Part shown: positions 1,618 through 32,373 of the stretch, in pieces
Position numbering within the stretch: position 1 is the first letter of the stretch
Layout: each line of letters opens with the position of its first letter
From: Candidatus Omnitrophota bacterium
GTDB taxonomy: Bacteria; Omnitrophota; Gorgyraeia; Zapsychrales; Fredricksoniimonadaceae
Assembly: GCA_043798045.1 (NCBI GenBank)
Contig: JAZDPD010000146.1
Location: 1-32,373, forward strand
Direction of reading: 5' to 3'
Length of the DNA: 32,373 bases
Notes under the pieces: model-generated
Seen by the model: only the letters and a program-made list of their open reading frames with translations
What the model was told of the DNA's origin: nothing
Databases searched by the model: none
Position numbers and translations under genes: made by a program

Positions 1618-4600
1618 TCAGAAATGTCGATTAAGCTCTGAAACGGGAAAAATTTCTTTCACAATAGGCGTTAAGCCAAAGGGTACGCCTTGCTCCAGAG
1701 AGGATTCACGAGATATCAATAAAGCCTGGTCAAGACGCCCCGAAGTTTCCAAAGAAAGCGCATCGGCCATCAGGTTAATACCACCCAGCTGATCATCCAT
1801 GGCCGCATCAGCTGTTAGCTCTTCTTTAAGAGCAACAAACACATTGTTGTAATCAACCGACCTTGTTTCCCAGCCGCTGTCAACGGCCATGCCGTTTTGC
1901 ATGCGAAGCTGCCATTCTTGCTGATCCGTTCTATAAACACGAACCGCTTCTTTTAACGCCAGGTAAAGCTCATCCACATTCTGCTGTCGGGCACCAACAT
2001 CCTCCTTGGGATTCATACGCCGAAAAGTTCCATTAAAAGCAAACCCGTTACGTTTATCGCCCGTATCAAAAACAGTATCCGCCATACCTCCAGTACGCCG
2101 CACAATCGGCAATGTTCCAAAGCGCATAGCCTGCTGATGCCTGACCCCGCATGGCTCAAAATCAGATATGGCAAACATGGCATCGGAACCACCAAATGAC
2201 AAACTACCAAAAGCGCGCACAAAGCCATGCAGCACAACAAGATTAACCCCGCGTTTACGTAATTTTTCATCCTGCGCTAACGCGATCAAACGCCGGGCTG
2301 ATATTAAGTCATCTGTCTGTTTATCCGCAGGCCCGCCAACAACAATATCAACCGGCAATGCCTCCCGGCGGCCATCACGGATATCTTCAAGAATATCCGC
2401 CAGAATATCCAACTGCTTTTGCTGAACAATGCGCTGGATCGCCTCAATCAAAATATTCGGAGAATTCTCATTAAGATATCCGTATTTAACCAGATCTTTT
2501 TCCGGCGCCGGCTGATCTTTCCCCAACATATACTGCAAGAAACTCTTGTTGATCTTTTTAGCCATAACAGCATCCGAAAGAACGGGCTTATACTGTTGTT
2601 TGATATAAGGGTCTGTTTCAGGATTAGCGGTTTCCAAATCAATCCCGTTAACAATGCCCCCAAAGCGATCTCCGATATCCTGCAACAGTTTATCTGTTTC
2701 AAATTCTGTCTGACGAATATCCTTGGCATAAGTATTGCTAACCGTATTGACATACCGGCCTTTACCGCCGAATTTCTTGATAACCCCAGGTGGAACAGCC
2801 ATAAAATTCATCTTGCCATCTTTAATGAGCAAGTTATCAATATCGCGAGTATCATTCAAACCAATTTCCTGAATAAGACGCCCAAGCGCATCAAGCCCTT
2901 TTGGCATAAAAGAAGGAAGAAAATAACTTAAAGACTCTCTCTTAAGCCTTTCGCCTTCGAAAGAATGCGCAAACTCACTTAATGCTAAATCACTCATGGT
3001 GTCAAAATCTTGAGGGAACATTGCAACAATATACTTGGGCATCGGCTGCTCAGTTAAATGTTGATTAATTAACCATCGAAAGAATGTAATGTCCTCATTT
3101 AGCCACTTAACAGCACCCTCTAAATTCTTGAATTTTAATTTCGGCTGTCCCATCGCTTTTAATAAAGGAATAATATCGTCCAAAGATGCCCATTCACTCT
3201 GAAGGAATTGAAATATTCCTAAATATTCCCCCTGATACCCAATATTATGGATCGTAAACACACTGCCCGTTTTTTCTAAAAAGCTTCCGGGAAGTTTCGT
3301 CATATATAAAGAAACAAGCGCCGCATGATGATCGCTGCTGACAATATGATCAGGAGCCTCTCCCAAAAACTTCAACAGCTCAAGAGATCCCTTGGAAAGA
3401 AGGATAGATTCATAAAATTCCTGTTTCTTCCCCAAATAAGGCTTATCAAAAAGATCCGGGGCATCAACCGCGTCAAGCATAATCACTTTAATACCGTCAA
3501 TAACAACCTTCTTGGCCTTTAACGTCACCGGTGAACGATAATTGAAATATTCATGATACTCAAAACCAGGAACATCCTCGACAAGATATTTATCCTTGAA
3601 AGAATCCGCAAGGCCTTTGAAATACGGCAGGATCACGGTCACATCATTACCCTGCTTAACAAGACTTTTGGGCAAATCATACATCACGTCCCCTTGGCCG
3701 CCTTTCATGACCAAAGGCTTGAATTCCATCCCGACAAAGGCAATCTTGCCCTTAAAATGACGATCCACCCAAACACGCCCGTTGCCATAAGGAAGATCAG
3801 CCCACTCCACAGCACCGGTTAGAATATGACAAAACATAAACGTATATTCAAATGAACGCTCAACCTGAAACTTCGTTTGAAAAACAGCATTGCCGTTTTC
3901 AATGCCTGCAAAAGAAAGCTTCAAAGGATCTTCCTTCCAGGAACCGTCACGATTGGAATACAAGAAAACATCATAATTTTCACGCAGGTCAGGATTATCC
4001 ATAATGGCACGTAACACCACCGAGGCGCCTTCAGCTGCACGCACAAACGTATTTTCTATATAACCTGAGGCTTGCGCGGCATCGCGCGAGAAATCCACCG
4101 CCGCCTCAAAAAAACCTGAAGAAGGGATTGCCGCCGTTTGTGCATTTTCAAGGATTTGGGATGTGCCGGATAAAGAAAACCCGCCCACCAGATATTTACG
4201 CAAGACAACATCATCACTGTCCGCATCTTTTTCTTCCCGCACCACATTAAACGCCCCGGCGTTGAACGCCCCGACGTAATTGCCGTAAATCTGTTCAACA
4301 TCCCCCGGATTCTTGATCCGCACGCCATAAATTTTCTTTTGATCCAGGTACGCCTTGGACAAAGCGCCACCGGCAAAACGTTTCTTATACCAAACCGCCA
4401 GGATGAGTGAATGATAAATCTGACGCAAGGGCGCAAAATTAGCGCCCTCGTTAACTTCTTTTTCGAGGGCGGGGAGGATGATTTCGCGAAGGATATTCTT
4501 GGATATTTCACCCGAATCATTCATGGAATGTACGGACGAAGCTTCCTCGCCCAATATCGGGCGGAGTGACGCCATTTCGGGCACGCCATGGCGTGCCCCT

Positions 4601-5274
4601 ACGGCATCATGATTCATCGCCACATAATCCGTATCCAACATCACCTTCAAACGTGCCTGGGTAATATAAGCCATCTGTTCAGGGCGGGTCACGGACCCGC
4701 CCCTACGCTCAAACACCTGCGCTTTTTGCGGCACGATCCATACCTTATTGATTGAATCAATCGGAATGTCGATGGTCCCAAACTTTTCCTGAACCTGGGC
4801 ATATACATCCGCCCAAAACTTTTTGCCAACAGCATTCTCGGGTGACAAAAGCGTGGCGGTTATCTGCTTGAGCACGTAATCCTGATTAAGCAGATCACGG
4901 CCCATTTCGGTCTGGCTAAAAGCCTGAGGGACAATGCGGTTTTTCTCATAAGGCGAAAGGTTGACCCAAAAATCACTTTCAGGAATTGTTATTGCTGCCA
5001 GGAAATATTTAACCAATCGGCCAACTTCATCTGCAGAAGGCGCCATCTGACCAGCCGGGTCAACAATAAAATCCATATGCCAAGGATTTTCAGGATTGAT
5101 CTTAATACCTTTAAGGACAGGAACAAAAGCCACTTCACCCGGCTTAACAAGCCACACAGGCGTCGGCTTTAAAATTTGGGCATGGCCAGGCAGGAGGCTG
5201 GAAAAAAGAAAAACAACAGCGACAAATGAGGCCGTAATTAACCTGATTGTATTATATGAATACACTTTTAACAT
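1618..5274 (-). CDS. Paralog 2: signal peptide + carrier domain + small beta-rich domain + glycogen/starch synthase-like GT5 cargo + C-terminal GGIN motif
   Basis: The ORF extends to TTG 5322; ATG 5274 with upstream AGGA is preferred. GT5 motifs: EFKPLVMKGGQGDV..LPKSL, FTIHNIGYQG, TVSNTYA, GIVNGID..NPETD, FEPCG..QAMRFGTLPIVRRTGGMADTV. Not called glgA because it is a fused, exported, divergent copy. Confidence 0.9.
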   Translation of the reverse strand: MLKVYSYNTIRLITASFVAVVFLFSSLLPGHAQILKPTPVWLVKPGEVAFVPVLKGIKINPENPWHMDFIVDPAGQMAPSADEVGRLVKYFLAAITIPESDFWVNLSPYEKNRIVPQAFSQTEMGRDLLNQDYVLKQITATLLSPENAVGKKFWADVYAQVQEKFGTIDIPIDSINKVWIVPQKAQVFERRGGSVTRPEQMAYITQARLKVMLDTDYVAMNHDAVGARHGVPEMASLRPILGEEASSVHSMNDSGEISKNILREIILPALEKEVNEGANFAPLRQIYHSLILAVWYKKRFAGGALSKAYLDQKKIYGVRIKNPGDVEQIYGNYVGAFNAGAFNVVREEKDADSDDVVLRKYLVGGFSLSGTSQILENAQTAAIPSSGFFEAAVDFSRDAAQASGYIENTFVRAAEGASVVLRAIMDNPDLRENYDVFLYSNRDGSWKEDPLKLSFAGIENGNAVFQTKFQVERSFEYTFMFCHILTGAVEWADLPYGNGRVWVDRHFKGKIAFVGMEFKPLVMKGGQGDVMYDLPKSLVKQGNDVTVILPYFKGLADSFKDKYLVEDVPGFEYHEYFNYRSPVTLKAKKVVIDGIKVIMLDAVDAPDLFDKPYLGKKQEFYESILLSKGSLELLKFLGEAPDHIVSSDHHAALVSLYMTKLPGSFLEKTGSVFTIHNIGYQGEYLGIFQFLQSEWASLDDIIPLLKAMGQPKLKFKNLEGAVKWLNEDITFFRWLINQHLTEQPMPKYIVAMFPQDFDTMSDLALSEFAHSFEGERLKRESLSYFLPSFMPKGLDALGRLIQEIGLNDTRDIDNLLIKDGKMNFMAVPPGVIKKFGGKGRYVNTVSNTYAKDIRQTEFETDKLLQDIGDRFGGIVNGIDLETANPETDPYIKQQYKPVLSDAVMAKKINKSFLQYMLGKDQPAPEKDLVKYGYLNENSPNILIEAIQRIVQQKQLDILADILEDIRDGRREALPVDIVVGGPADKQTDDLISARRLIALAQDEKLRKRGVNLVVLHGFVRAFGSLSFGGSDAMFAISDFEPCGVRHQQAMRFGTLPIVRRTGGMADTVFDTGDKRNGFAFNGTFRRMNPKEDVGARQQNVDELYLALKEAVRVYRTDQQEWQLRMQNGMAVDSGWETRSVDYNNVFVALKEELTADAAMDDQLGGINLMADALSLETSGRLDQALLISRESSLEQGVPFGLTPIVKEIFPVSELNRHF
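4530..4602. repeat. REP doublet (REPIN-like), in frame within paralog 2
   Basis: GTAC-GGACGAAGCTTCCTCGCCC ... GGGCACGCCATGGCGTGCCC-CTAC, including a perfect 20 bp palindrome at 4579-4598. Near-identical copies at 14971 and 22612. Confidence 0.8.
4682..4706 (-). repeat. GTAG-type REP palindrome in frame (encodes RRGGSVTRP)
   Basis: Minus strand GTAG-GGGCGGGTC-CGT-GACCCGCCC. Second copy at 26935-26959. Confidence 0.8.
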
Positions 5275-5350
5275 TTCTACTGATCCTACGCCAACTGCTA
5301 CAAATGTCAACAAACGCAACACTGCCCTGGAATCAATAATCTTTAAAGCC

Positions 5351-8300
5351 TTAGGTCGCCGACGCTACGGCATGTGCGAATAACGACATTGTCATTGCCG
5401 GCTTAATATCCAAAATCACTGGAACAAGGCCTTCAATATGAATATTCTCAAAATTCTGTTGGCCAACAGGCAAAAGAACACCATTCCCATTACGCTTGAT
5501 CTGTAAATCCAAATTCGCTGCATTCATGTCAATACCACCTGGCACCATGGCTTTATCAGAAGAAAACGGCTTTTCCTTAATATAAAGCTCAGAATCCTCA
5601 CTTTGATAGTATAACATTTTCCCTGAAGGAATACCGGTACCCCTAAACCACTCCATCACACCATCGATCTTTATTTTTGAAACATCCTCTGAATACGAAT
5701 TGAATATTGTATAATTAATCCTAACATTAAAACCCGTGCCATACCCTTTAACTTTACTCAAAAAATCACTGATAACCGCTTCCATCTTTTCAGAATCACC
5801 ACTACCCTCAACCCTGGCTTGAATTTTAGAAGGAACAACTTCAGTAACAAAAAAATACTTATAATTCTTATCCAAGAATCTTACTACAACCTGATCTTCT
5901 AGCACATTCCGACTCGATATAACCTGATCCACACGCCCCCACTTCCCGGTAGCGCGTACAGCCACAGGATCAAGGCGTTGAAAACCACTATCAGCAACTC
6001 CCTCATAATCCTTACTATTAAGCAAAACCTCCGACCTAAGAATGTCATCAATCTGAGGCTTGAGCTGTTTATTCAATTCATGTTCAAGCTGATCATTCAA
6101 AATATCCAGCTCTTTATGGATCGCCTGAAATTTCTCCAAAGCATCCGCAGCACTTGAGCGTGCCGACAACCCCATCACCAATGCGGTCAACCGAACCGGC
6201 CCCCTGAATTCCCTCAAAATATTGGGAACAGCCCACGCGGCAATTGCCCCATGCCCCGGGTCTTTCAATTCCTTCAAACGCGGATCCTCATGTTGAAATT
6301 CTGCAATCATTATCTTTAACTCATCCACAAAATCTGCGGCCGAACGTTCACTGGCACTGGAATATCCAGCAGCCAATACCGAAAGCCATCCCGAATAAAA
6401 GCGCCCAACCACCTCTACCCCTCGTCCAGCAATCGCCTTATCCAATTCATCTTCAATCTCCTGAGATTTGGATATCATCTTCTTGACACTTTCTCGCGCC
6501 CGCCATACAGTCTGATATTGCGTCTGCAACTGAAAGAATTGCGGATCCCGTTCAAACAACCTTATCAATGCAATCCGCTCTTTGGTCCGAAAGGCCACTG
6601 CCGCGGCCGTCCGCTTAAAACTTTCATTCACCACATTAACAATACCCGGCCCCACCGCATACCCTACAATAAATAAAGCTGAACCTAACCCAAGAATTGA
6701 AATCCATTTCCTGACCGTATCACTCATCGCCAAATCAACTGAAAACAAATCAATCGTTTGAAACGCCCGCGCTTGGCGAATGAACGGACTTACGCCCTGA
6801 GGCAATTGCGCCGTATGATTAACAACAATCTTTTTCTGGTCATCTTCAGGCAAATTCCCAAGATCATATGCTGATGTATGATTGGAAACATCCGCTACTG
6901 TTCCCGGCTTGCCGTAACCCGCCTCATAAATAACAAGCTCCGGCCTCTTTCCATCTTCATTGACACGAAATAGCCCGTCTTTAATCTCTTGTGCCCTCGC
7001 TTGATCAAATACAATCTGACCATCCTGATAATCCGTAAATCGCTTCAAGTCATTCTTAATATCTTCCGATATCCCGGGCAACCCTTCTCGGGAAAAAGTA
7101 TCCAAACGCAAAGGCGCCATGGTTGTATCCGAAGAATGACTGATGGCCCTGCCTTTGTAACTGATCTGAAACTGCAATGTCGGACTCCCATGAAACGCAG
7201 GGATAGATTTGATACGGAAAGCCTCCTCGCCTGCCCCAACAACTGTTGTTTCATTAAATTTCAAAGAAATAAGCTGAACATCATAAAAACTTTCTAACGG
7301 AGCATTCAAAATGATCTCTGCCTGTTCTTTGAAAAACTTATAAATACCCGGTTCAGCCAACATCTTAATTGACCGCCCACTGTGTTTAAGCCACGCAAAA
7401 TACGACAGCATCCCCGCCACATGATCCTCGTGCATATGCGTCAAAACAACATAGCCCATATTGTCGGGAGAAATCTTTAATGCCGTCAACGACCCAACAA
7501 CCGCAGGGCCAGCATCAACCAGAACACCTTTCTGTCCGACCCAAATCACTTGACTGCTTGCCAAACCATTAGAATCCATCGCACCACTTGTGCCTAGAAA
7601 TGTTACTCCGAATTGAGGGATTTCCTTAAGTGGCTCAACCCCAGCTATGGCAACATTCATTTCCTGCCAGGGATTTCCGTCCAATACAGCTTCTTGATCA
7701 CCATCAATCACCCGAACAGAACCATCTTTCTGATCAACAATCCCCACACCACCAACCTGCGCTTGACCTTGAGACATCACTTTAAAATCCACCATGGTCG
7801 TTGCATCCGAATGGCTTTCCAATATCTGTGCCGGGGAAATAATCTGCCATCGTCCATTAATCCTGACCCTGTCTGCTAAAACAATAGCCTCTCGCCTTAA
7901 CTGATCAATAAACGCCTGGGAATACCCTGCCTCATTCGGCAGAAAATATGGATTTCCCAGATCAAGGTATTTAATAACCCTTTCTTTCTCTTGCTCATTC
8001 TTTACAACAACAACTGTCTTGCGTCCATGAAACGCATAGTTCGCGGCTATTGCAAAATAGGCCTGCATCAAATTACTGCCATCCTGCCCGACCCAATTTC
8101 CTGATGGCGGCGCCACAATAACCGCAGGAAAATCATCCTTCTCAGGAACAAGCGCCCTGTGGAGCATGGATATCCCCAAAGAAATCACACCCTGTGATGT
8201 TTTAACATAATTCCTGTTCGGGTTATGCAAAGCAATGTCAACTTCTCCTGCAGGATAATGATAATCCCGATCAACCCCTGCCACCATGGCCAAATCGGCA

Positions 8301-9478
8301 GGAGCAACCCGCACAAGTGTTGCCACAATGTCGGATTGCGCCGCATCATTAAACCCTTGTGGTGTTATAGCCTGAACATGTTGAATGTATCCAGGCTTAT
8401 CAAACTCGACACCCGCGCTAACAGCTCCACCCGAAAAGTACTTCCGGGGAATCACCTCATGGGCATATTGATCCAGATCCTCTTTGATCAAGTTAAAAGC
8501 ACCGGCCTTAAACGCCGTCACATACTGATCATAGATTCGCTGATTATTGACAGGATCTTGTTCAATCCCTTTAACCTTGGACTGATCAGCATACACCTTG
8601 GTCAATATCGATTCCTTTAGCGCACGCTTATACCATGCCGCCAACAGCATGCCGCTGTATACCTGACGCAGTTGGGCAAAATTCTTCCCCTTGTTAACTT
8701 CTATTTCAATTTCAGGAATAATGATTGCACGCAGAATGTTTTGAGCCAGTTCTTGGGTTGTTGCGTTGGTAACGCGGTCAGCGCTCCTGGGCGCTTTCGT
8801 ATCCACCGATAACTCGCCTGGAAACGTGCCCGGGGATAATGCGGCATTATTCATGGCCTCATAATCTGTTGCCATCATCACTTTCAGATGATGCTCAAGG
8901 ACATAAACCGTGTTATCCTTTTCATAAATCACGGCCTTGCTCGGAACAACCCAAACCTTATTAAACATATCTGTCGGGATATCAGTTGTTCCAAACCTCT
9001 TATAAGCAACCTCATAAACCTGATCCCAAAACCGTTTGCCGAACGCCGTATCAGGATTAATCAATGAAGAACTGATTTGCTTAAGAATATAATCTTGAGC
9101 CAAAAGATCCCGACCCATTTCTGTTTTGCCAAAAACATCGGGAATAATCCTGTCTTTTTCATATGGCGAAAGGTTAACCCACTGGTCCGTATCCGGCACC
9201 GCCAAAGCCGCCAGAAAGTATTTGATAAGCTTTGAATACTGCGCCTGCTTCGCTTCAGAAGTCAACAGTTCATCACTGCGTTTGATAATAAAATCAAATT
9301 TAAACGGATCATTGGGATAAACAACCATGCCCTGAAGCTGGGCAGGGGTGAAGGCAGGGCTTTGGAGTACCATTGTGCCGGGTGCCGGTAAATTCAGCAC
9401 CTGCGCCATACTTCTAGAAGGAAGAATACAGTTGCTGACAAATGCCAACAACACAAACCACAATGCGATCTTTTTCAT
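5351..9478 (-). CDS. Paralog 3: signal peptide + carrier domain + MBL-fold metallo-hydrolase (RNase Z / cNMP phosphodiesterase-like) + TM/coiled-coil module + C-terminal GGID motif
   Basis: The ORF extends to 9499; ATG 9478 (MKKIALWF, GGAG upstream) is preferred. Motifs FGVTFLGTS, VLVDAG, THMHEDH (HxHxDH), AFHG, SSDT, NHTS. Hydrophobic helix WISILGLGSALFIVGYAV. Confidence 0.9.
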   Translation of the reverse strand: MKKIALWFVLLAFVSNCILPSRSMAQVLNLPAPGTMVLQSPAFTPAQLQGMVVYPNDPFKFDFIIKRSDELLTSEAKQAQYSKLIKYFLAALAVPDTDQWVNLSPYEKDRIIPDVFGKTEMGRDLLAQDYILKQISSSLINPDTAFGKRFWDQVYEVAYKRFGTTDIPTDMFNKVWVVPSKAVIYEKDNTVYVLEHHLKVMMATDYEAMNNAALSPGTFPGELSVDTKAPRSADRVTNATTQELAQNILRAIIIPEIEIEVNKGKNFAQLRQVYSGMLLAAWYKRALKESILTKVYADQSKVKGIEQDPVNNQRIYDQYVTAFKAGAFNLIKEDLDQYAHEVIPRKYFSGGAVSAGVEFDKPGYIQHVQAITPQGFNDAAQSDIVATLVRVAPADLAMVAGVDRDYHYPAGEVDIALHNPNRNYVKTSQGVISLGISMLHRALVPEKDDFPAVIVAPPSGNWVGQDGSNLMQAYFAIAANYAFHGRKTVVVVKNEQEKERVIKYLDLGNPYFLPNEAGYSQAFIDQLRREAIVLADRVRINGRWQIISPAQILESHSDATTMVDFKVMSQGQAQVGGVGIVDQKDGSVRVIDGDQEAVLDGNPWQEMNVAIAGVEPLKEIPQFGVTFLGTSGAMDSNGLASSQVIWVGQKGVLVDAGPAVVGSLTALKISPDNMGYVVLTHMHEDHVAGMLSYFAWLKHSGRSIKMLAEPGIYKFFKEQAEIILNAPLESFYDVQLISLKFNETTVVGAGEEAFRIKSIPAFHGSPTLQFQISYKGRAISHSSDTTMAPLRLDTFSREGLPGISEDIKNDLKRFTDYQDGQIVFDQARAQEIKDGLFRVNEDGKRPELVIYEAGYGKPGTVADVSNHTSAYDLGNLPEDDQKKIVVNHTAQLPQGVSPFIRQARAFQTIDLFSVDLAMSDTVRKWISILGLGSALFIVGYAVGPGIVNVVNESFKRTAAAVAFRTKERIALIRLFERDPQFFQLQTQYQTVWRARESVKKMISKSQEIEDELDKAIAGRGVEVVGRFYSGWLSVLAAGYSSASERSAADFVDELKIMIAEFQHEDPRLKELKDPGHGAIAAWAVPNILREFRGPVRLTALVMGLSARSSAADALEKFQAIHKELDILNDQLEHELNKQLKPQIDDILRSEVLLNSKDYEGVADSGFQRLDPVAVRATGKWGRVDQVISSRNVLEDQVVVRFLDKNYKYFFVTEVVPSKIQARVEGSGDSEKMEAVISDFLSKVKGYGTGFNVRINYTIFNSYSEDVSKIKIDGVMEWFRGTGIPSGKMLYYQSEDSELYIKEKPFSSDKAMVPGGIDMNAANLDLQIKRNGNGVLLPVGQQNFENIHIEGLVPVILDIKPAMTMSLFAHAVASAT
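8772..8845. repeat. Diverged partial copy of the ~130 bp in-frame insertion element
   Basis: cctgggcgctttcgtatc...tggaaacgtgcccgggga aligns by eye with 15470-15525 and 26084-26136. Peptide SPGTFPGELSVDTKAPRSADR vs SPSTLPSNVALDSKATQDANR. Confidence 0.55.
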
Positions 9479-9568
9479 GCGTAAAGACTCCATTATCAAG
9501 ATAAATTCATCAACTATTTAGTAAGTATGACATATAAATATATACGGAAACAACTTTGAAAGGCAGCG

Positions 9569-23354: not shown

Positions 23355-26300
23355 TCACTCTAATCCCAACACAGTCGACAACGCCTTGATTGGCGCAATA
23401 TTAATAATGACTGGCGTGAAGCCATTAAAGCCATTCTTAATCACATCACGCACCGCGTCATCATTAAACTCGATCTTGACTGTGCCGGTTTTGCTAACAT
23501 TAATATTCTGAATGTCGATACCACCGTTTTGGGCACGATCAATTATGTACGTCCCATCCAGAATTTTTTCAATGTCGGTATACGCATCCTTGGCATGATC
23601 CGGTTTAAGGCCAGGAACAACAACTAATCCGAAAAGTATTGATTCATACCAATCCTTGATTGCTTTCAAAAGCACTTTAAGCCCACCTTTAACAACCTCA
23701 TCTTGACCTGGATTATAAAGTTCTTTATTGATTATGCGTAACGTAACAGTATCTTTCGCCTTTAAATCCTCCACAATAAATCCGCGTAGTAATCTGCCGA
23801 TGGAACGAACGTGCATCATCATTGGCGGCTCTTCAATAATACGCAGCTCATCTGGATTCCAAACCCCTAACATTTCAATGGCATTCTCGACTAATGCCTC
23901 TTTCACGCCCAATGAAGCATTCCTGTACCGCTCAACATACCTGGCTATGAATTGATTTGAACTCTTGAGAATATCCCAATATTTATACCCCGCGAAGATA
24001 ATACCCGCCGCTGGTAACGCGATAATGGCGGCAACAACAAGATCAGTCGGGAGCATGGCAAAATCAGGCTGCATCGAATTTTGTGTTGCCAAAAGCACCG
24101 GCTCGGCGTTTGCCAAAGCTTTAGACGACCTCCAATTGATATACCCTGAATCCACTTCCTCAAGCGAACGGTCCCCCAATAAAATCCTTAGGGCCCCTGA
24201 TTGGGCCCTATGGCCAAAAGCAATAACCGTGCCCCCTTTAAAACGCGCATTCACCGCGTCAAGCCACCTCTTGCTCCGTATTAAAACATCAATATAACTT
24301 TCTCCGCCTAAAGGCCGGATCACTGCATTTAAACCATAGCGGTATTGTTGGGCGTAAGGATCATTCAAAACACCAACAACCACATTTTCATGATTACCAA
24401 AATTTATTTCCTGAATTCCCTGTCGAAGAACTGGTTCATCCACCACAAGCACCTTGCCGCCCGCCTTACGATACATTTCAAGAAAAACGTCAGATGTTTC
24501 CTCTGCACGTCCCGCTGGACTTCTTATCACAACAATCTCTTCACCTGAAACAATCTTGTCTCTTAAGGCCTCAACTATTTTTAAAGCCGCAGCACGCGCC
24601 TGTTCTTTCCCTCTTGGATTAAGCTGATTGATGGCTTCATCAGAAACACCCTGGAAAACATTCATCACATTTCCAAAAGTCTCGCCGTGACGCACATACC
24701 ACAACGTAAAATCAGGAACAAATGCAACGCCATCACCATGCTTAATACGCCCCGTATTTTTATTGTACAAAATCTTACCGTCAAGCTCCGGGATCGGGCT
24801 CACATCCTGATCATTCAACACATCAAACAACACCTGCGTTTCATAAACCGGGCCAAAACCTTTTGAAATATCTTTCGGATCAGAAATGTGAATCTTGGTA
24901 TGCACCTTATCCTCATCCGACGCACCAAGCATATCCCTCAACTCTTTGGCAAGCGCCCTAAACTGCACCGCCGACTGATTATTTGTTCCCTGAATAAACA
25001 AAAATACCACCGGGCCCTGCGTCATATAGGGCACGAGATCGCGCTCAACAAATTCTTTGCCATCGTGCATACGATAGAATTTCCGCGCCTGATCAGGAGT
25101 GAGCATAATCGGCTCACTGGCTTTAACAATTTTATAGCCAGCCGCCTCTATGCGAGGAGCGATCAAACTCAAACCAGAGATAAAGCCATCTCCTTTTTTC
25201 AAATTAACAGCGTCGGGCTTGATAATTGCGATTGTGTTAAATCCATCGCGGACACCGTTTAAAAAATCTAATCGCTCTTTCATTGAAAAAACCGCCATCG
25301 CCTCGTCGGCGACATTCGCAGACAAAGCTGAATCAACTAGCGCAACCCTATTCATCATCAATATGTCAATTTGATTGACGGCTTCATGTGCCATATAAGG
25401 AGTAATCGCTACAGAAAATTCCTTTTCATTCGCAAGCTTCATTAAAGAATCTTTTGCTATGTTTAAGATTTCATGCAAACGATCTATTTCTTTAACAGAA
25501 GTCTCGGGATGATGAATGATGCTCGAAATAACATCAAATGATGTTGTCTGATGCGATGCGATATCCTGCTTGATAAATCGATCCAGCGTTAATCTCAAGG
25601 TGCTTTTCTTTCCAAACCATGAATACGATTTAACATTCCCCATACCAACATCATAAAATCCCATCAATCCAGACAGCACATTCGAAATAAGATTTCTTCG
25701 CCCCATAACGTCGGATCGGCGATACAAATCATCATTACTTTCGACTGATTCTCTAACATCCCTAAATTCAAGGAATAATAACAACGCTCCCAAAAATGAA
25801 CCCAAAAATACATAACTGCCTTGCATCAAAACCAGCATCGACGCATCAGGCGGAGTGATCACATTGTCAGATAAGGCCAATGAAACCCGCTGTACCCCAA
25901 ACAGTGCCTCATGAGAGTAATTGCCACCCATCGCCATATCAACTTTAAACATAGAGCCAATAGATGGGCGAACGGACATGGCATTATAAGTTTTCATTAA
26001 AGGAACATTCTTCATGGCGAAACCGGAAATACCGCCGGAGAAATATTGGCGGGGCTCACCTTGGTGCGGCAAACGGTTGGCGTCCTGGGTCGCTTTCGAA
26101 TCCAGCGCAACATTGCTTGGCAACGTGCTTGGGGACACAGAGCCCCGTTGATCATTTTGTATCGGGGCACTATGTCCCCGGGTTGGCAATGGTTGTTGAT
26201 CATCATCCTTAATATAATTAAAAACGCCCTTTTTATACGCGGCGATGTAACGCTGGTAAATCTCTTCCTTTAATGTCTTTTGATCGGTTGTTACACCACC

Positions 26301-27254
26301 AACCTTATTGGTGCCGACGTAGGCATTGGCGAGCAATGTTTTTTGGATTTTCTCGCGGTACCATTTGGCCAAAATAGCGGCGTGGAAAACTTGTCGGATG
26401 GCGGCGAAGTTTTTGCCTTCGTTGACTTCTTTTTCGAGGGCGGGGAGGATGATTTCTCGGAGGATATTTTTGGATATTTCATCCGAATCATCCAAGACGG
26501 GCACGCCATGGCGTGCCCTTACGTTTGCCTCATTGGCCGCAACATAATCAGAATCGAGCATCACCTTTAAACGGGCTTGTGTGACATAAACCGCATTGCC
26601 TTTTTCAAACACTTCCGCCTTATCCGGCATGATCCATACTTTATTGAAAGTATCAACAGGGATATCCGTGGTGCCGAATTTGGCCAGCGCCTGTTCATAA
26701 ACCTTGGCCCATAATTCTTTGCCCAATCCTTTTTCGGGATAAATCAACGATGCGGTAAGTTGCTTTAATAAATAATCCTGCGCCAACATGTCACGACCTA
26801 AAACGGTTTGGCCTAAATCATTCTCAATCACACGATCTTTTTCATACGGGGAAAGGTTGACCCAGAGATGGTCTTCAGGGACCGTGATGGCCGCGAGGAA
26901 ATATTTGGCCATGCGCATGGTTTCTTCTTCAATCGGGCGGGTCACAGACCCGCCCCTACGGATATCCGCCTCTGCATCAGCGTCATTACGTAATGGCACG
27001 CCATGGCGTGCCTTCATGGCATCGCCCGAATCAACAATAAAATCAAAATTTAGCGGCTTATCAGGATGAATCACCATGCCCTTAACGAGCACAGGCGTGA
27101 AAGATGATGACACCCCAACCATGGTGCCTGGCTCAGGAAGTTGTGACACAAACAAGCTCTGGGCGTAGGAAAACTCGGGGCTAATCAAAAGGGCGGACAC
27201 AAGCACCATGCTCATTAACCTGCGCCAAACTTGAGAATATAATAAATTAATCAT
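23355..27254 (-). CDS. Paralog 6: signal peptide + carrier domain + TM-helical module + nucleoside-diphosphate kinase + histidine phosphatase (PGM family) + second TM-helical module + C-terminal GGID motif
   Basis: The ORF extends to 27302; ATG 27254 with upstream AGGA is preferred. NDK: TIAIIKPDAV, ARKFYRMHDGKEF, YMTQGPV, KIHISD. His phosphatase: YVRHGET, SPAGRAEET, QEINFG, GGES, FGH. Confidence 0.9.
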   Translation of the reverse strand: MINLLYSQVWRRLMSMVLVSALLISPEFSYAQSLFVSQLPEPGTMVGVSSSFTPVLVKGMVIHPDKPLNFDFIVDSGDAMKARHGVPLRNDADAEADIRRGGSVTRPIEEETMRMAKYFLAAITVPEDHLWVNLSPYEKDRVIENDLGQTVLGRDMLAQDYLLKQLTASLIYPEKGLGKELWAKVYEQALAKFGTTDIPVDTFNKVWIMPDKAEVFEKGNAVYVTQARLKVMLDSDYVAANEANVRARHGVPVLDDSDEISKNILREIILPALEKEVNEGKNFAAIRQVFHAAILAKWYREKIQKTLLANAYVGTNKVGGVTTDQKTLKEEIYQRYIAAYKKGVFNYIKDDDQQPLPTRGHSAPIQNDQRGSVSPSTLPSNVALDSKATQDANRLPHQGEPRQYFSGGISGFAMKNVPLMKTYNAMSVRPSIGSMFKVDMAMGGNYSHEALFGVQRVSLALSDNVITPPDASMLVLMQGSYVFLGSFLGALLLFLEFRDVRESVESNDDLYRRSDVMGRRNLISNVLSGLMGFYDVGMGNVKSYSWFGKKSTLRLTLDRFIKQDIASHQTTSFDVISSIIHHPETSVKEIDRLHEILNIAKDSLMKLANEKEFSVAITPYMAHEAVNQIDILMMNRVALVDSALSANVADEAMAVFSMKERLDFLNGVRDGFNTIAIIKPDAVNLKKGDGFISGLSLIAPRIEAAGYKIVKASEPIMLTPDQARKFYRMHDGKEFVERDLVPYMTQGPVVFLFIQGTNNQSAVQFRALAKELRDMLGASDEDKVHTKIHISDPKDISKGFGPVYETQVLFDVLNDQDVSPIPELDGKILYNKNTGRIKHGDGVAFVPDFTLWYVRHGETFGNVMNVFQGVSDEAINQLNPRGKEQARAAALKIVEALRDKIVSGEEIVVIRSPAGRAEETSDVFLEMYRKAGGKVLVVDEPVLRQGIQEINFGNHENVVVGVLNDPYAQQYRYGLNAVIRPLGGESYIDVLIRSKRWLDAVNARFKGGTVIAFGHRAQSGALRILLGDRSLEEVDSGYINWRSSKALANAEPVLLATQNSMQPDFAMLPTDLVVAAIIALPAAGIIFAGYKYWDILKSSNQFIARYVERYRNASLGVKEALVENAIEMLGVWNPDELRIIEEPPMMMHVRSIGRLLRGFIVEDLKAKDTVTLRIINKELYNPGQDEVVKGGLKVLLKAIKDWYESILFGLVVVPGLKPDHAKDAYTDIEKILDGTYIIDRAQNGGIDIQNINVSKTGTVKIEFNDDAVRDVIKNGFNGFTPVIINIAPIKALSTVLGLE
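26063..26195. repeat. ~130 bp hairpin-containing in-frame insertion element, copy B
   Basis: Highly similar to 15451-15582 but located in a different loop of the carrier domain. Confidence 0.75.
26499..26522 (-). repeat. REP palindrome in frame (encodes VRARHGVP)
   Basis: Minus strand GTAA-GGGCACGCCATGGCGTGCCC. Confidence 0.75.
26935..27012. repeat. Pair of REP palindromes in frame (RRGGSVTRP and ARHGVP)
   Basis: GGGCGGGTC-ACA-GACCCGCCC-CTAC (26935-26959) and GGCACGCCATGGCGTGCC (26995-27012). Confidence 0.78.
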
Positions 27255-27379
27255 TGAATGATTCCTGTTTATTTTTGTCACACCGCCCAAGGCAATCATC
27301 ATCGAACCAGGAGAAACCCCTACAAATCATTTTGTTAGAAAATTGACTCTAACAGCATCGACCTGTTAATTCTGCATAA

Positions 27380-27826
27380 TTATAATGGCCACAAAAAACC
27401 CTTCGCCGAATTAACAGCAAAGGGAACAATTAATTCATGATTCTCTATTTCCTGAACACGCTCATATCCGACTTTGGCTAGCCAGCGCTTGAACGGCTCG
27501 GCTTTAGGTAACGGGATCGATTGAATAAGCCGGAAAATCCCCTCGGTATTCCAACAATACATTTTCTGCAGGCCACCCGCTGTATCAATTTCAATAAAAA
27601 GGGGTGGTACAAATTGTACCCCCCCTTTTTGCATTAACTCCGCAAGCTCTTTATCCCTCATTTTCAACCGTTTGAAATATTGCGCAGGGTCTTTCGAATC
27701 ACACAATGTTTCAATAACATCATTGATCACGAACCACCATTCATTATTATGAATGACTTTAGGAATCTTCCGCCCTTGAAAAATGGCAATGTTATGGATC
27801 ACAGGCATGGTTTCTTTTTCAGGCAT
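27380..27826 (-). CDS. Bro-N domain (phage antirepressor-like) protein, probably C-terminally truncated
   Basis: IAIFQGRKI..IHNNEWWFVINDVIETL...YFKRLK...NTEGIFRLIQSIPLPKAEPFKRWLAKVGYERVQEIEN. Good RBS (GGAGG). The ORF ends about 20 aa after the Bro-N domain. Confidence 0.85.
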   Translation of the reverse strand: MPEKETMPVIHNIAIFQGRKIPKVIHNNEWWFVINDVIETLCDSKDPAQYFKRLKMRDKELAELMQKGGVQFVPPLFIEIDTAGGLQKMYCWNTEGIFRLIQSIPLPKAEPFKRWLAKVGYERVQEIENHELIVPFAVNSAKGFLWPL

Positions 27827-27883
27827 ATACCCTCCATGGGCTTAATTAATTAAACCCATGATGCCACTCATATGTGTGGTACG

Positions 27884-30800
27884 TCAAATACTATCAATAT
27901 CATCAAACTTTCTTGCCACCAACGCCGCCATTTCTTGCTTTTCCGGCGTATTACCAATTGAAGGATCAGTTATGCCCATGGCTACCAAGGGGCTGGCAAT
28001 AGGGGTGATATTAATAATCACGGGTGTAAAACCATTAAACCCGTTCTTTAAAACCTCGCGCACGGCTTCTTCGTTAAACTGAATCTTGGACGTGCCGGTT
28101 TTATTGACGTCAATGTTCTTGATGTCGATACCACCGTATTGAGCATTATCAGACGCTACCGCCTCAACTTTTTCATGATAACCAGCCGCAAGCGCAGCAA
28201 ACTGATCGAGTGTCTCATTACCCATGAACGCCACTGACGGAACAACACCCTCAGGCATCTGAAGAACAGCGCCGACCCTCTCGCCAAAAATCCCGCCAGC
28301 GCCATTGATCAAAAGATCCGGATATTTGGAACGCACATCCTTTAATACATCACCGGCCTGAGTAAAGGTTTGATCCACAAAATCAGCAAAAGGGCCAAAC
28401 TGGACACCATCCGCGCCCGCAGCCACACTTTCATCCACACGCCCCATCACATAATTGTCTTTAAACGCAATGTCATTAATGATAACTATCGATGGGTGCG
28501 CGATTTTAATGGCCTTGATTGTTTCAGGCGTAAGGTACTCTTCAACGCCAACCAGATAATCAGCACCCGCCTCAATGGCCTTTAGTGCCTCGGGCACATT
28601 ATTCCTGATAAAATATCCTGCAAGGGCATTTGGCCTACCTTCTTTAAAATACTGCAAAGCGTCCTTAATATCAAAGACAGGCAGGATACCCCGATCAAAC
28701 ATCACTCTGGCCACCTCGCTCACACCCACCGCGCCCTTTTGCGTGAGCACTCCCTTAAAACTCTTATTCTTGCCAGTCTCGGTATGCAGCCCGGCGAACA
28801 AGCCTGTCTTTCTTATTTCTGTCAATGTTGCCAATTTGACCTGAGATACAGTCTCAAGCAATGCACTGATCGCCTGATAAGCCACCATGGATTGAGACCG
28901 TGAAACCTCTAAAGGCGGCACTGAGCCATCAAGAATCCTGCCAAAGTACTCCTGCGCGGACAACAAAACCTCACGCAGGAAGTCCGCTTCTTCACGCGTT
29001 TCCGGATGAGCCAAGGCTCGATTTATCACATCAACCGTTGTTGTGATAGTATTTTTAACATCCTCAATGATCATGGCCACCAGCGTCTTTTTCATAATAC
29101 GACGGTGTGAAATCAATGATGACGATTCAAGAGAAACCCATGAATCATCGCCGCCGTTATACAAAAGCTCCAGCACTGAACCGACAAAATCCTTCCTGCT
29201 GCTTGATGCACGATAAAGATCCAGGTTCTTTTGAACAGATTTCCTGATTTGTCTTAACTCGACCCAAATAACAGGCGCTGCCAGAACAGCGATGACCGCG
29301 GCATAAGATAAAATCTGGGCGCTATCTATTGGCGCGTCGGGAAGATTAATCGAGAAAGCCGAAGTTGATGGCAAATCACTCGCCATCGCGGCGTCAAAAC
29401 CCTCTGGCTCAACGCCCATTTGAAGCAAAATAAGCATACGCACTTCTTTTCTGACTTTATTCTGCAAATCTTTCGGCATTTGATCAGGAAAATTGATTCT
29501 TAACGCTGTTTGAATCATATCCGCAACTTCCTGCGGGTCAGCCGTCGGAACTCTTTTTAATGCAATATTCACACGCTTAATAATTTTAGGCACAACCATG
29601 TCAAAAAAACCAGGCGTCATGCTGAACTTATAATTTAAAATAGCCCAGCTTAACAAATCCTTCACAGGCTTAACCGCCGGCTTTGTTGACTCATATTGAT
29701 TAACGAGCGCCTTCCCACCGACACCATCTAAAACCATGAGCCACACTTCTTCCTCTCCAATCTTTTTCTCAAGAGCAGGCATTTGCGGAGGCTGCTTAAG
29801 ATCCAGTTTTGATCTAACCAAATTGGCAATTTCCAATAATCCCATTTGAGGAAACTCCATCTGGGCCATCAAGGCCAACATGTCAATCTTCTCTCTTAGC
29901 ATCCGGCAAAATGCCGGATCCAGCCAAAACTCATCCTGCTTAAAGCTTTTTTCAGAACTTGACGCTGACGGCTGGCGCATCGGCGTCATTCTTACAGCAC
30001 GATTAGCATCAATAATTGCCGCATTTTTCATATCTTCACGAAACTTCATCCAAAAACGAGCCGCCGCACCCACGGCAAGAACACCAACAATGCCCGATAT
30101 AATCCAATGCTCTTGCACCATATTAATGACATTTGCCATCATGGCTTCGTCGGAAGCATCTGTCAAATACGCTAAAGACGCATGCTGTAGTGACTGCGCA
30201 TCATCATTTGTATTCTGCCACTCCTTTGACATCATTTCCCTCAACCCAACAACCGTATAAACAACATCAGGAGCACCTTCTTGCTCAACCACCACTGAAA
30301 GTTGCTCAGGAATTTCTTGCTGATCCCTCCTTAGATGAATCGGAATCACAAAAGTATTTCCATTATCAGCGCTGATCTCCATAAATTCCTGACCTTGTGG
30401 AGGCCTAAACTCTACCCCATTAAGCAATTTCGGACTATCTCCTAAGGCAAAAACATCTACCTTTTTGATTCTAATCGGCTTGCCCGAATGATTTTCAAGC
30501 CAAAAAAGAAACTCCGCATTCGTATGATTCAAACCAATACCTGTATGTACATCAAAACTTCGACGGGCATACTCAGGTCTTAGTCTCAGCCCCATATAAT
30601 CCAGGGTTTCATAATAATAACCCATTCTCTTACTCTTTTGACCCCACGCATCTAATTGATACAGCTTTCTTGAAGCAACATCCTCACGAGCCTTCAAGGG
30701 CAATTTAATTTTAGGCACCATCACACCCTTAAGAAGGCTCTGGACATTAACATATTCAACAAGTGTTTGACCGATACCCGGCCTATAAGCCTTAACGCTA

Positions 30801-32373
30801 ATTTTATCAATGGGCTTGCCGAATGAAAGAAGCGGCACATCAAATGAAAACGTCGCATTGGCAGGGATCATTTGAAGATCGCCAATAGGAGCATCTGTTG
30901 TAGCAGTCACTTCCTTGCTCCCGTACGCATAAACACCCTGAAGCCCAACTTTGCCGTTTTTCCCTGTACCCACTACAGCCTGAAACGCTGTTTCGGCTAC
31001 ACCATCCTGGCCATAAGCACGCGCCACCAAGCCCTGTATAGGCGCTTGCTTATTGCTCATCGATGTGACTCCGAGATTAACTTTATAATAAAGAGTCATC
31101 CCTGTTTCATGATGCACATGTGGCTCAATTCCCAACACCTCAAACTTCAATCCTCTGTCAACAACCGGAACGCCCACATCCACTTTCTCAAATACTTTCG
31201 CAACACCAGATGGCTCAGACACCGCACTCACTTCCCGCGTCGACTTATTCATCAACGAAGAGAAATATCTGCTCATATCTTTCTCATACCATTTGCCTAC
31301 AGCTAATATGCCCACAACCATACCAAAAATGAGCACGAACTGCTTTAAGGAACTTCCTTCCTTAACATCCTCAACAACGCGCTTAACCTCAAGATCCGCT
31401 AACGGGGCCTTCTTACCCTCAGGGCCCGCTAAAGGAGCTTTCTTTTCGGGCTCTTGATAATTAACATTCACATGCAATGGAACCCCAACCAAATTATCCC
31501 AACGGCTCTTATTCTCATTCACCAAAACCGAAGGATGCTTCCAGCCCGTTTTAAACATATCTTCAAGACCAACCATCGAATAAAACTCCAACCCTGAATC
31601 TTGACGCCTGACCAAGATTGCAACTTGTTGTGGCAACTTTCCCTCGTTAGAAAAGTTTTGAATCGGCATATCGATCGATTGTCCCGGTAAAAGTGAAAAA
31701 TATCCATCCGCATCACGCCCTGACAAGCCATTCTTTCCAACAACTTCCCTGTCAGATGCAAACAGATAGGCTTCCACCTTGATCCGCATCGCATCACTTG
31801 AATTATTCATGAAACGAAAACCATACCCCCTACCATCATCGGCGACACCGAGCGCATTAATGAGTAACCCCTCGTAATCAGTCGTTTTTTTGTAATCGAC
31901 CACATAAGTAAAATCAGCTTCCATTCCTGCCGGAGCTGTAATCCCATCTTTAAAGGGCATCAAATCCTGATCAACTTTCATAAACATCTTGCGTTCCTCT
32001 TGCGCTGCATCAAAACGCAACTCAGACAAAGGAATGCTGGTAAAAGAAGACTGCATCGCCTTGTCATTCTTTGATGAGGCCTTTTTTTCAAACAACACCT
32101 GCATATTCTCAAAAGTAAAAACAGAGTTTTTCTGATTGTGGCGGCGGATTTGCCATTGCACCATATCAACCGCACCCTGATAATCACCTATATTAAGCCT
32201 CAAACGCACATCTTCCCCAGGACGCAAACCAATCGTCCATCCTTTGTCATTGATTGGAATTGAAGAAATCGCTGCCGCAGGATAATGAAGCATGGCAATA
32301 CCCGGCCTACCATTATTATCCTCAACCGAAATCAAAGAAGCCCCCACAGGAACCTTGCTGGAATTATAAGAAA
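27884..32373 (-). CDS. Paralog 7 (5'-truncated by window edge): repeated beta-rich domains, TM-helical modules, KDPG/KHG-aldolase-like TIM barrel, C-terminal GGID motif
   Basis: The frame is open from 27884 to the window end, so GTG 32347 is probably not the real start. The C-terminus GGIDIKNIDVNKTG...GFNGFTPVIINITP is nearly identical to paralog 6. Barrel motifs: AIEAGADYLV, AAGADGVQFGP, PDLLINGAGGI. Confidence 0.88.
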   Translation of the reverse strand, partial: SYNSSKVPVGASLISVEDNNGRPGIAMLHYPAAAISSIPINDKGWTIGLRPGEDVRLRLNIGDYQGAVDMVQWQIRRHNQKNSVFTFENMQVLFEKKASSKNDKAMQSSFTSIPLSELRFDAAQEERKMFMKVDQDLMPFKDGITAPAGMEADFTYVVDYKKTTDYEGLLINALGVADDGRGYGFRFMNNSSDAMRIKVEAYLFASDREVVGKNGLSGRDADGYFSLLPGQSIDMPIQNFSNEGKLPQQVAILVRRQDSGLEFYSMVGLEDMFKTGWKHPSVLVNENKSRWDNLVGVPLHVNVNYQEPEKKAPLAGPEGKKAPLADLEVKRVVEDVKEGSSLKQFVLIFGMVVGILAVGKWYEKDMSRYFSSLMNKSTREVSAVSEPSGVAKVFEKVDVGVPVVDRGLKFEVLGIEPHVHHETGMTLYYKVNLGVTSMSNKQAPIQGLVARAYGQDGVAETAFQAVVGTGKNGKVGLQGVYAYGSKEVTATTDAPIGDLQMIPANATFSFDVPLLSFGKPIDKISVKAYRPGIGQTLVEYVNVQSLLKGVMVPKIKLPLKAREDVASRKLYQLDAWGQKSKRMGYYYETLDYMGLRLRPEYARRSFDVHTGIGLNHTNAEFLFWLENHSGKPIRIKKVDVFALGDSPKLLNGVEFRPPQGQEFMEISADNGNTFVIPIHLRRDQQEIPEQLSVVVEQEGAPDVVYTVVGLREMMSKEWQNTNDDAQSLQHASLAYLTDASDEAMMANVINMVQEHWIISGIVGVLAVGAAARFWMKFREDMKNAAIIDANRAVRMTPMRQPSASSSEKSFKQDEFWLDPAFCRMLREKIDMLALMAQMEFPQMGLLEIANLVRSKLDLKQPPQMPALEKKIGEEEVWLMVLDGVGGKALVNQYESTKPAVKPVKDLLSWAILNYKFSMTPGFFDMVVPKIIKRVNIALKRVPTADPQEVADMIQTALRINFPDQMPKDLQNKVRKEVRMLILLQMGVEPEGFDAAMASDLPSTSAFSINLPDAPIDSAQILSYAAVIAVLAAPVIWVELRQIRKSVQKNLDLYRASSSRKDFVGSVLELLYNGGDDSWVSLESSSLISHRRIMKKTLVAMIIEDVKNTITTTVDVINRALAHPETREEADFLREVLLSAQEYFGRILDGSVPPLEVSRSQSMVAYQAISALLETVSQVKLATLTEIRKTGLFAGLHTETGKNKSFKGVLTQKGAVGVSEVARVMFDRGILPVFDIKDALQYFKEGRPNALAGYFIRNNVPEALKAIEAGADYLVGVEEYLTPETIKAIKIAHPSIVIINDIAFKDNYVMGRVDESVAAGADGVQFGPFADFVDQTFTQAGDVLKDVRSKYPDLLINGAGGIFGERVGAVLQMPEGVVPSVAFMGNETLDQFAALAAGYHEKVEAVASDNAQYGGIDIKNIDVNKTGTSKIQFNEEAVREVLKNGFNGFTPVIINITPIASPLVAMGITDPSIGNTPEKQEMAALVARKFDDIDSI

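Follow-up and report, generated by a model that had tools for sequence, protein, structure and literature searches.

The contig JAZDPD010000146.1 of the Candidatus Omnitrophota bacterium assembly GCA_043798045.1 (2.3 Mb in 276 contigs, 76.6% complete) was analysed over a stretch of 32,373 nucleotides (contig C161; hereafter, the window). Here we show that the proteins encoded in the window carry a short motif, D-x-A-[M/Q], which is real, sharply defined and specific to a family of exported proteins built of a constant head, variable cargo and a constant tail. The motif is the best candidate so far for the places where the proteins of this family are cut or gripped.

The minus strand of the window is filled by seven large open reading frames (ORFs), p1-p7 (Table 1), all of which are members of one very large Omnitrophota family. 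The family has no existing name, and its membership was defined by profiles built from the heads and tails in the window. Its layout consists of a Sec-type signal peptide, a head of about 340 amino acids (aa), the cargo, which is freely exchanged and in many cases comprises entire enzymes of cytoplasmic type, and a tail of about 60 aa that starts with GGID. An N-terminal hydrophobic signal followed by the head (WVNLSPYE ... YFSGG) is present in six of the seven window proteins, the 5' end of p7 being cut off, and the tail, starting with GGI[DN], in all six that have a C-terminus, the 3' end of p1 being cut off. The head and tail profiles detect 67 family ORFs or fragments in this genome, 72,311 aa in total, or about 10% of its 712,792 ORF residues.

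Definition and specificity of the motif

The original prediction, made from the DNA of the window alone, listed 21 copies of a motif D-x-[AS]-[MQ] as marks of cargo-module boundaries. All 21 are present at, or within a few bases of, the places where they were listed. The pattern D.[AS][MQ] has 30 matches in the seven window proteins, compared to 7.4±2.6 in 2,000 shuffles, and the strict form D.A[MQ] has 25, compared to 4.15±2.01 in 3,000 shuffles (shuffle maximum, 13). Of the two residues proposed for position 3, Ala was upheld and Ser was not: DxS[MQ] occurs 5 times in the window vs 3.35±1.82 expected (P=0.24) and 32 times vs 23.6±4.9 in the family members of the genome, and the conditional enrichment at this position is 1.0-1.1-fold for Ser vs 5-6-fold for Ala. 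The Ser variants, which account for four of the 21 listed sites (DQSM, DHSM, DASQ and DASM), are unsupported as a class, although a few of them occupy canonical positions nonetheless, such as p6 DASM just before a hydrophobic helix. The motif is therefore refined to D-x-A-[M/Q].

Conditional counts across 186 family proteins define each position. After D-x-A, Met is enriched 9.3-fold and Gln 4.9-fold, with all other residues at 1.4-fold or less; Ala is enriched 6.2-fold at position 3 and Asp 6.1-fold at position 1, and the flanking positions are enriched at most about 2-fold. Asn and Ser at position 1 (1.1- and 0.7-fold) and Glu at position 4 (0.6-fold) show no such preference. An independent set of 144 cluster representatives presents the same picture (336 matches vs 56.3±7.2), with Met 13.2-fold vs Gln 1.6-fold enriched at position 4 and with Pro favoured at x, reflecting the DPAM of the tail itself; in 119 homologues, D.[AS][MQ] is found 269 times vs 52.0±6.8. 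Such a sharp definition with free flanks is typical of a site recognised by an enzyme or a receptor.

In the family members of this genome, the strict motif occurs 174 times vs 28.1±5.2 expected, 91 times with Gln and 83 times with Met, and D.[AS][MQ] occurs 206 times vs 53.0±7.0, part of the motif count being contributed by the DPAM-like position inside the tail (see below). There is no excess in the other 1,884 non-overlapping ORFs of the genome (640,481 aa; 326 matches to D.[AS][MQ] vs 318±17), and the rate of the strict motif is 2.41 per 1000 aa in the family vs 0.31 outside it. One 5'-truncated ORF counted as non-family, C4:2176-6492, has eight sites (P=2.8e-8) and may be a family member with its head off the contig.

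The expectation that codons vary synonymously at the motif was borne out at the 174 strict sites. Asp is encoded by GAT at 75% and by GAC at 25% of the sites, against a background of 81/19; all four Ala codons are used, GCC at 45% vs 26% in the background; and the Gln codons match the background. Third codon positions carry about 0.2 bits of information and the 12 upstream bases at most 0.26 bits, and neither a Shine-Dalgarno-like signal nor conservation at the DNA level was detected at these sites. Selection acts on the protein, not on the DNA. The codon data, together with Gln being as frequent as Met, argue against an internal start, a relic of a Shine-Dalgarno sequence or a recombination site.

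Location of the motif within the proteins

The motif had been placed just after the carrier domain, that is, the head, and a few residues before GGI[DN], and both placements hold. D.[AS][MQ] is found within 40 aa past the invariant head-end YFSGG in 39 of the 46 heads of the genome (within 12 aa in 19), and 1-7 residues before GGI[DN] in all six C-termini of the window. The 206 matches in the family members of the genome include 66 within 80 aa after the head, 24 just before the tail, 24 inside the tail, 78 in the cargo and 14 in the head. Among the 144 representatives, sites are densest in the first 60 aa past the head (12.0 per 1000 aa) and at the tail (10.2), compared to 0.57 in the head. 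Tandem sites follow the head, with 67 of 257 inter-site gaps spanning 30 aa or less. Cargo interiors, defined as the sequence at least 80 aa from the head and at least 30 aa from the tail (284 proteins, 164,270 aa), contain 184 sites vs 53.2 expected, a 3.5-fold excess (7.6-fold for Met and 2.2-fold for Gln), the non-family control being flat.

The tail has a second conserved position of this kind, about 25 aa after GGID, which reads DPAM, DPAQ, DPAL, DPAV and so on. Because its fourth residue varies in the tail alignment (M, Q, L, V or I), this position looks like an element of the tail fold rather than a junction.

Within the cargo, the motif avoids recognised domains: in 20 proteins in which Pfam envelopes cover 21% of the region, none of the 53 sites falls inside an envelope (binomial P=3.5e-6). 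Several sites adjoin domain ends, namely p2 DAAM (GlgA), p5 DMAM (phosphoenolpyruvate (PEP) synthase) and p6 DFAM (histidine phosphatase). Hydrophobic helices, where they occur, come after the motif: of 170 internal sites, 11 have a hydrophobic 15-mer beginning no more than 12 aa downstream, compared to 35 of 5,680 positions chosen at random (odds ratio 11, P=5e-8), and in the window this arrangement is seen at p3 aa 922, p6 aa 486 and 1080, and p7 aa 741 and 1016. The motif does not separate every pair of domains, as had also been noted; p4 lacks a strict site between aa 429 and 2010, and p6 has none between NDK and the phosphatase. The idea that internal motifs mark cryptic tail starts found no support, with GG following 5.3% of them vs 3.4%, which is no enrichment. 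We also rejected the rule that the number of membrane helices between head and tail should be even, as expected if both must share one side of the membrane: a crude hydropathy scan found no helix in 86 proteins, one in 14 and two in 6.

Cargo turnover in the family is very fast. The histidine phosphatase module of p6 was found again in four other genomes (in one of them with 56% identity), always with other protein neighbours, and is followed there by DPAM and the tail, by DSAQ and another module, by SPAM, or by no motif; overall, the motif follows the module in three of five contexts. No orthologue of p6 was found at the strict threshold of E≤1e-20 among 7,999 candidates, and none of 40 related genomes, including eight of the same genus, has the same cargo order; in the genomes of that genus, the histidine phosphatase module is all of p6 that recurs.

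Predicted docking of head and tail

A natural minimal member of the family (C195:2646-4070; 474 aa: head, short linker and tail) was modelled by AlphaFold2 from an 80-row alignment with a mean predicted local distance difference test score (pLDDT) of 72.4 and a predicted template modelling score (pTM) of 0.70. The head core has pLDDT of about 90, the helix and strand after the head 82-92, and the tail strands up to 93, with the DDAAM (aa 347-351), DNAAK and GGVD stretches below 50. The model of the p3 head is similar (mean pLDDT 68.6, pTM 0.68), and p3 DLAM402 lies in a segment with pLDDT below 50. These models suggest that the motif is exposed in low-confidence loops at the exit from the head and the entry to the tail.

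When the head and tail of p3 were modelled as separate chains with paralog alignments, they were predicted to dock with an ipSAE interface score of 0.73 (0.76, 0.73 and 0.73 in individual runs; best control, 0.01); the mark used for this score is reached by 58 of 80 solved complexes vs 2 of 110 mismatched pairs. The docking runs share at least 32% of the contacts, and the partner pLDDT is only 44-52, so that the fold of the tail itself is uncertain. In the tail, the confident interface begins at the Pro that precedes GGID and takes in the ~20 residues that follow; its counterpart in the head includes Q106-S111, Q135/D136, L139/K140, N180-N196, L277-R294 and the strand after the head (aa 371-378; all in p3 numbering). 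The residues W107-S111, Q135/D136, L139/K140 and N180-V184, all contacted by the tail, are each at least 93% conserved in 153 heads, and the interface covers most of the best-conserved residues of the head. In the model, these head residues would be conserved because the tail docks there. The head and tail are thus predicted to form a clasp in which GGID plugs the most conserved groove of the head and the cargo is a closed loop, with the post-head and pre-tail motifs at the predicted neck of that loop.

Candidate function of the motif

The original prediction read the motif as either a protease site or a handle for a chaperone or translocation machine. The anatomy fits both; cutting itself, along with a cutting enzyme and the side of the cut, is a plausible proposal. 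We tentatively favour the first reading, at somewhat less than an even chance: D-x-A-[M/Q] may be a processing site, at which an endopeptidase would read the motif and cut the chain. The motif stands at the exit of the chain from the head, at its re-entry into the tail and at some of the joints between cargo modules. A cut would free the cargo from the head-tail clasp and would separate modules that start with a membrane helix of their own. The sharp definition with free flanks, the exposure, the tandem sites, the presence at both ends of the cargo and the position before helices are together fitted best by a site read by an enzyme. A more far-reaching version is a long shot, namely that the clasp can hold any protein as a loop, be it a cytoplasmic-type enzyme, a DNA-binding protein or a membrane protein, and that a dedicated enzyme cuts the neck sites, releasing dozens of cargoes per genome on the outer side of the cytoplasmic membrane, or else on or inside prey or host cells.

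Several observations weigh against processing at the motif. The motif is not universal, and many family members lack it at one neck: of 142 representatives, 93 have a site in the 60 aa that follow the head, and of 105, 38 have one in the 16 aa that precede GGID; in this genome D.[AS][MQ] starts within 14 aa before GGID in only 22 of 41 tails, with near-misses such as DNAAL and DNAAV elsewhere. The density in cargo interiors of the representatives is low (0.75 per 1000 aa), and p4 contains a multi-domain stretch of 1,550 aa with no site. In BLAST comparisons of the paralogs (44 high-scoring segment pairs), the motif is found 0-25 aa upstream of 7 of 38 segment starts vs 2.5±1.5 expected and at 6 of 37 segment ends vs 2.5±1.4, a weak signal in each case. 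One site, p3 DAAQ385, is modelled at the end of a short helix (pLDDT ~66) rather than in a free loop. Finally, the predicted docking of the tail would account for the conserved groove of the head.

The search for an enzyme yielded no convincing candidate and adds to these points. A catalytic site in the carrier domain or a co-occurring protease had been suggested, and none was identified. By Foldseek, the head has no match in the PDB at E≤0.001 (best E-value, 0.39), and its best VIA-align Z-score is 3.8, so that a known protease or any known fold was rejected; in the ESM Atlas, the head matches unnamed Omnitrophota clusters only. It is possible that the head is an enzyme of a novel fold. The family is nearly devoid of conserved Cys, with none among the head invariants. 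Pfam scans of 47 family proteins detected neither Peptidase_C80 nor any other cysteine protease family, and the only embedded protease in these proteins is a single M23 cargo. The comparison with MARTX toxins made in the original prediction therefore stands for the linker anatomy and fails for the defining feature, the self-cleaving C80 domain, found in 0 of the 47. An S8 subtilisin was not found in this 76.6%-complete genome.

One S26 signal peptidase I gene was detected, at C62:5345-5863. Signal peptidase I requires small neutral residues at -1 and -3, after a hydrophobic h-region. The N-terminal signal peptides fit this rule and the motif does not: its Ala would be at -1, but -3 would be Asp. 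The signal peptides of the paralogs end in AQ (xAQ) in 30 of 35 cases, as do, by eye, those of many other exported proteins of the genome, and the Ala-then-Gln of the motif resembles these ends. The S26 gene lies 2.3 kb upstream of the family gene C62:2-2998, on the same strand, possibly by coincidence.

A C39-like cysteine peptidase was also considered. The ORF C201:188-2620, the start of a giant gene, is open-ended (811 aa) and encodes a C39-like domain at aa 232-311, followed by hydrophobic stretches rich in Gly, Ala, Ser and Thr. Homologous domains open ORFs of ~8,000 to 44,000 aa in relatives. Of 201 genomes of the phylum, 70 have the domain and 26 have the head, and 18 of 25 head-bearing genomes have the domain. 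Its place in a giant gene and its loose co-distribution with the family make it a poor candidate for the protease of the motif. C39 peptidases cut after Gly-Gly, and GG is invariant in both YFSGG and GGID of the family.

Less probable, and on balance unlikely, is that the motif is a handle that is not cleaved but gripped by a partner (for instance a chaperone, a machine for translocation or sorting, or a receptor of the target cell), such that long chains are handled piecewise. The same anatomy (three defined residues, free flanks, exposure and family specificity) fits a handle as well as a cut site, the failure to find a protease speaks for it, and multivalency of the kind seen in the tandem arrays is typical of binding motifs. 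However, no partner is known; AlphaFold2 leaves the motif undocked on the head in cis, with pLDDT below 50; the head-tail interface named above begins only after the motif; and a handle leaves unexplained why helix-led modules start right after it.

It is improbable that D-x-A-[M/Q] is a structural hinge or helix cap with Asp as the N-cap and with no reader at all. The in-tail DPAM-like copy, with its conserved place and variable fourth residue, behaves in this manner, and in the models both p3 DAAQ385 and the minimal member's AAM form short helical turns. A cap, however, should also accept Ser, Thr or Asn as the first residue and Glu as the fourth, whereas only Met and Gln are enriched at position 4; the preference is missing from the other 1,884 ORFs of the genome; and most sites are in low-confidence segments.

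A relic at the DNA level, either a scar of recombination or fusion in which Met is a former start codon, or an internal translation start, would accord with the fast cargo turnover and recurrence of single modules in unrelated contexts, with Met as the commonest fourth residue in the wider family, with the over-use of GCC before that residue and with modules that start at about their native N-terminus right after Met (e.g., the PEP synthase module of p5), but is very improbable given that Gln, whose codons CAA and CAG cannot start translation, is as common here as Met, that third positions are nearly free of information and no Shine-Dalgarno-like signal is present, that eight conserved bases are too few for homologous recombination and that a neutral scar would not hold D, A and M/Q while its flanks randomise.

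Distribution of the family and features of the window

The head profile matches 8,312 clusters (50% identity) at E≤0.001 among 1.84 billion representatives in public data, and 6,786 clusters at E≤1e-30. Among the 150 best representatives, the first residue of the head always lies within residues 2-65; the head is single and N-terminal. Short head-only proteins in the databases, considered as possible natural termini, are mostly fragments, and neither these nor the tail-only ORFs of this genome were informative. The relatives listed are all annotated as 'hypothetical protein' with no further name, and their source labels are 'Candidatus Omnitrophica/Omnitrophota bacterium', Ca. Elulimicrobium, Ca. 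Aceula and, for some bins, 'uncultured Planctomycetales'. Among 201 sampled Omnitrophota genomes, 26 encode the head; these represent every sampled family but one of the order to which the window belongs, along with some further families in its class, whereas the 63 sampled genomes of one large family yielded no head.

The cargo of p4 has NUDIX as its sole Pfam match, and Pfam and NCBIfam scans recognised no domain in the cargo of p7. Across the 47 scanned family members, the cargo includes SNF2 helicase, HTH domains, GGDEF, histidine-kinase ATPase, Fic, phosphoglucomutase and GH77. These would make sense only near DNA or nucleotides; all are encoded behind a Sec-type signal. A seemingly split family gene was found at C82:11442-14216, where a 289-aa ORF with a truncated head is followed, after a gap of 184 bases, by a 573-aa ORF that begins with Met and a hydrophobic helix and ends with a normal tail.

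Some heads in the window contain a GC-rich element of ~90 bp, inserted in frame in a head loop (p2 4507-4596, p4 14948-15037 and p5 22589-22678), the copies in p2, p4 and p5 being 94-100% identical; p6 contains shorter copies near 26500-26520 and 26940-27010. The element contains perfect palindromes headed by GTAG (GGCACGCCATGGCGTGCC) and lengthens the protein by ~30 aa (…ARHGVPEMASLRPILGEE…). Contigs C76, C82, C62 and C216 carry more copies or half-copies. The element has the look of a REP-type hairpin repeat that is translated as a loop.

Table 1. Genes of the window and copies of the motif within them; residue numbers refer to the encoded protein
Feature	Position	Strand	Description
p1	2..1381	-	family member cut by the window edge; signal peptide and head (260-1276)
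p2	1618..5322	-	1234 aa; signal peptide, head 4123-5184, GlgA-like glycogen synthase cargo, tail 1621-1836
p3	5351..9499	-	1382 aa; signal peptide, head 8384-9409, MBL/RNase Z-like cargo, hydrophobic-helix module, tail 5354-5584
p4	9569..15820	-	2083 aa; signal peptide, head 14555-15727, long multi-domain cargo, tail 9572-9796
p5	15926..23329	-	2467 aa; signal peptide, head 22196-23254, cargo including PEP synthase/PPDK-like module, tail 15929-16165
p6	23355..27302	-	1315 aa; signal peptide, head 25971-27158, helix module, NDK, histidine phosphatase, helix module, tail 23358-23582
p7	27884..32371	-	at least 1495 aa, 5' end outside the window; modules with three hydrophobic helices, tail 27959-28177, 24-aa C-terminal extension
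p1 DQAM	1118-1129	-	inside head, probably no junction site
p1 DQAQ	797-808	-	inside head, probably no junction site
p2 DAAQ	4072..4083	-	aa 414, 33 aa past the head-end motif (here KYLVGG)
p2 DAAM	1798..1809	-	aa 1172, 4-9 aa past the end of GlgA homology, 4 aa before GGIN
p3 DAAQ	8336-8347	-	aa 385, N-terminal flank of the post-head strand DIVATLVRV
p3 DLAM	8285-8296	-	aa 402, other flank of the post-head strand DIVATLVRV
p3 DLAM	6725..6736	-	aa 922, internal junction, 9 aa before hydrophobic helix aa 932-950
p3 DKAM	5546..5557	-	aa 1315, 2 aa before GGID, immediately upstream of the tail residues predicted to dock
p4 DRAM	14525..14536	-	aa 429, post-head
p4 DQSM	14444-14455	-	aa 456, Ser variant, statistically unsupported
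p4 DFAQ	9782-9793	-	aa 2010, 7 aa before GGID
p4 DPAM	9674-9685	-	inside tail, the tail's own conserved position
p4 DGAQ	9695-9706	-	inside tail, probably likewise no junction
p5 DHSM	22127-22138	-	Ser variant, unsupported as a class
p5 DASQ	21356-21367	-	Ser variant, unsupported as a class
p5 DMAM	20339..20350	-	aa 994, 3-6 aa before the start of PEP synthase homology (aa 1000)
p5 DDAM	16130..16141	-	aa 2397, 4 aa before GGID
p6 DMAM	25929..25940	-	aa 455, post-head
p6 DASM	25836-25847	-	aa 486, Ser variant directly before hydrophobic helix aa 490-508
p6 DEAM	25296..25307	-	aa 666, 20 aa before the NDK domain
p6 DFAM	24054..24065	-	aa 1080, directly after the histidine phosphatase module, 4 aa before hydrophobic helix aa 1088-1106
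p6 DRAQ	23529..23540	-	aa 1255, 1 aa before GGID
p7 DKAM	32054-32065	-	strict site
p7 DAAQ	32000-32011	-	strict site
p7 DDAQ	30194-30205	-	strict site
p7 DEAM	30140-30151	-	strict site
p7 DAAM	29384-29395	-	strict site
p7 DSAQ	29315-29326	-	directly before helix aa 1019-1037
p7 DNAQ	28139-28150	-	1 aa before GGID

Comparison with known systems and implications

MARTX toxins and viral polyproteins have short junction sites that are cut by an embedded protease; 3C-type proteases cut after Gln, and birnavirus VP4 and signal peptidase I after Ala. The family described here resembles these systems in that independent modules are joined on one chain and a short motif is conserved in the linkers. It differs from them in that no protease was recognised besides the M23 cargo in the 47 proteins scanned, many junctions have no site, and cutting is proposed rather than observed.

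Type IX secretion cargo of Bacteroidota has a Sec signal, variable domains and a conserved C-terminal domain that is removed by a sortase-like peptidase. The signal peptide, the variable cargo and a constant C-terminal module with a recognition point just upstream are common to both. Unlike type IX cargo, the proteins of this family have an additional constant head at the N-terminus on which the tail is predicted to dock, and the motif is also found after the head and between modules. No domain of the Por_Secre_tail type was detected in Pfam or NCBIfam scans of the seven window proteins.

The closest parallel is found in the same phylum, in the Omnitrophota giants of the 'multi-enzyme metabolic cluster' or Archaeovorin type which, as far as the available text describes them, are chains with signal peptides or membrane helices that tile unrelated enzyme domains and for which cleavage has been proposed; a C39-like domain is present in the giant gene of the genome analysed here. 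The window proteins are much shorter (1.2-2.5 kaa vs 10-147 kaa), and a constant head and tail are not mentioned for the giants in that text. Cleavage by C39 or S8 domains was proposed by West-Roberts et al. 2023 (bioRxiv 10.1101/2023.11.21.568195), the available text of which states that the cleavage points are unknown. The available text of a 2026 complete-genome preprint (bioRxiv 10.64898/2026.06.07.730766) has no occurrence of 'cleav', 'linker', 'junction' or 'polyprotein', and that of Seymour et al. 2023 lacks the term 'signal peptide'. In the available parts of the Omnitrophota literature, the supplements of which may hold more, we found no description of the head, the tail or the motif.

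Omnitrophota encode hundreds to thousands of long proteins with signal peptides, in which enzymes that are normally cytoplasmic are strung together. A motif of three defined residues that is specific to one family makes the question of whether such proteins function whole or cut directly testable, and the predicted clasp offers a concrete model of the carrier. Public spectra from Omnitrophota include PRIDE PXD025008, obtained from the Ca. Velamenicoccus archaeovorus enrichment and named in PMC12583861. If the release of cargo loops by cutting at the neck were true, the family would amount to a general system of secreted delivery by 'polyprotein and cargo-loop', with no described counterpart among bacteria, and the rules of the motif would also give the cut sites of the giant proteins of the phylum.

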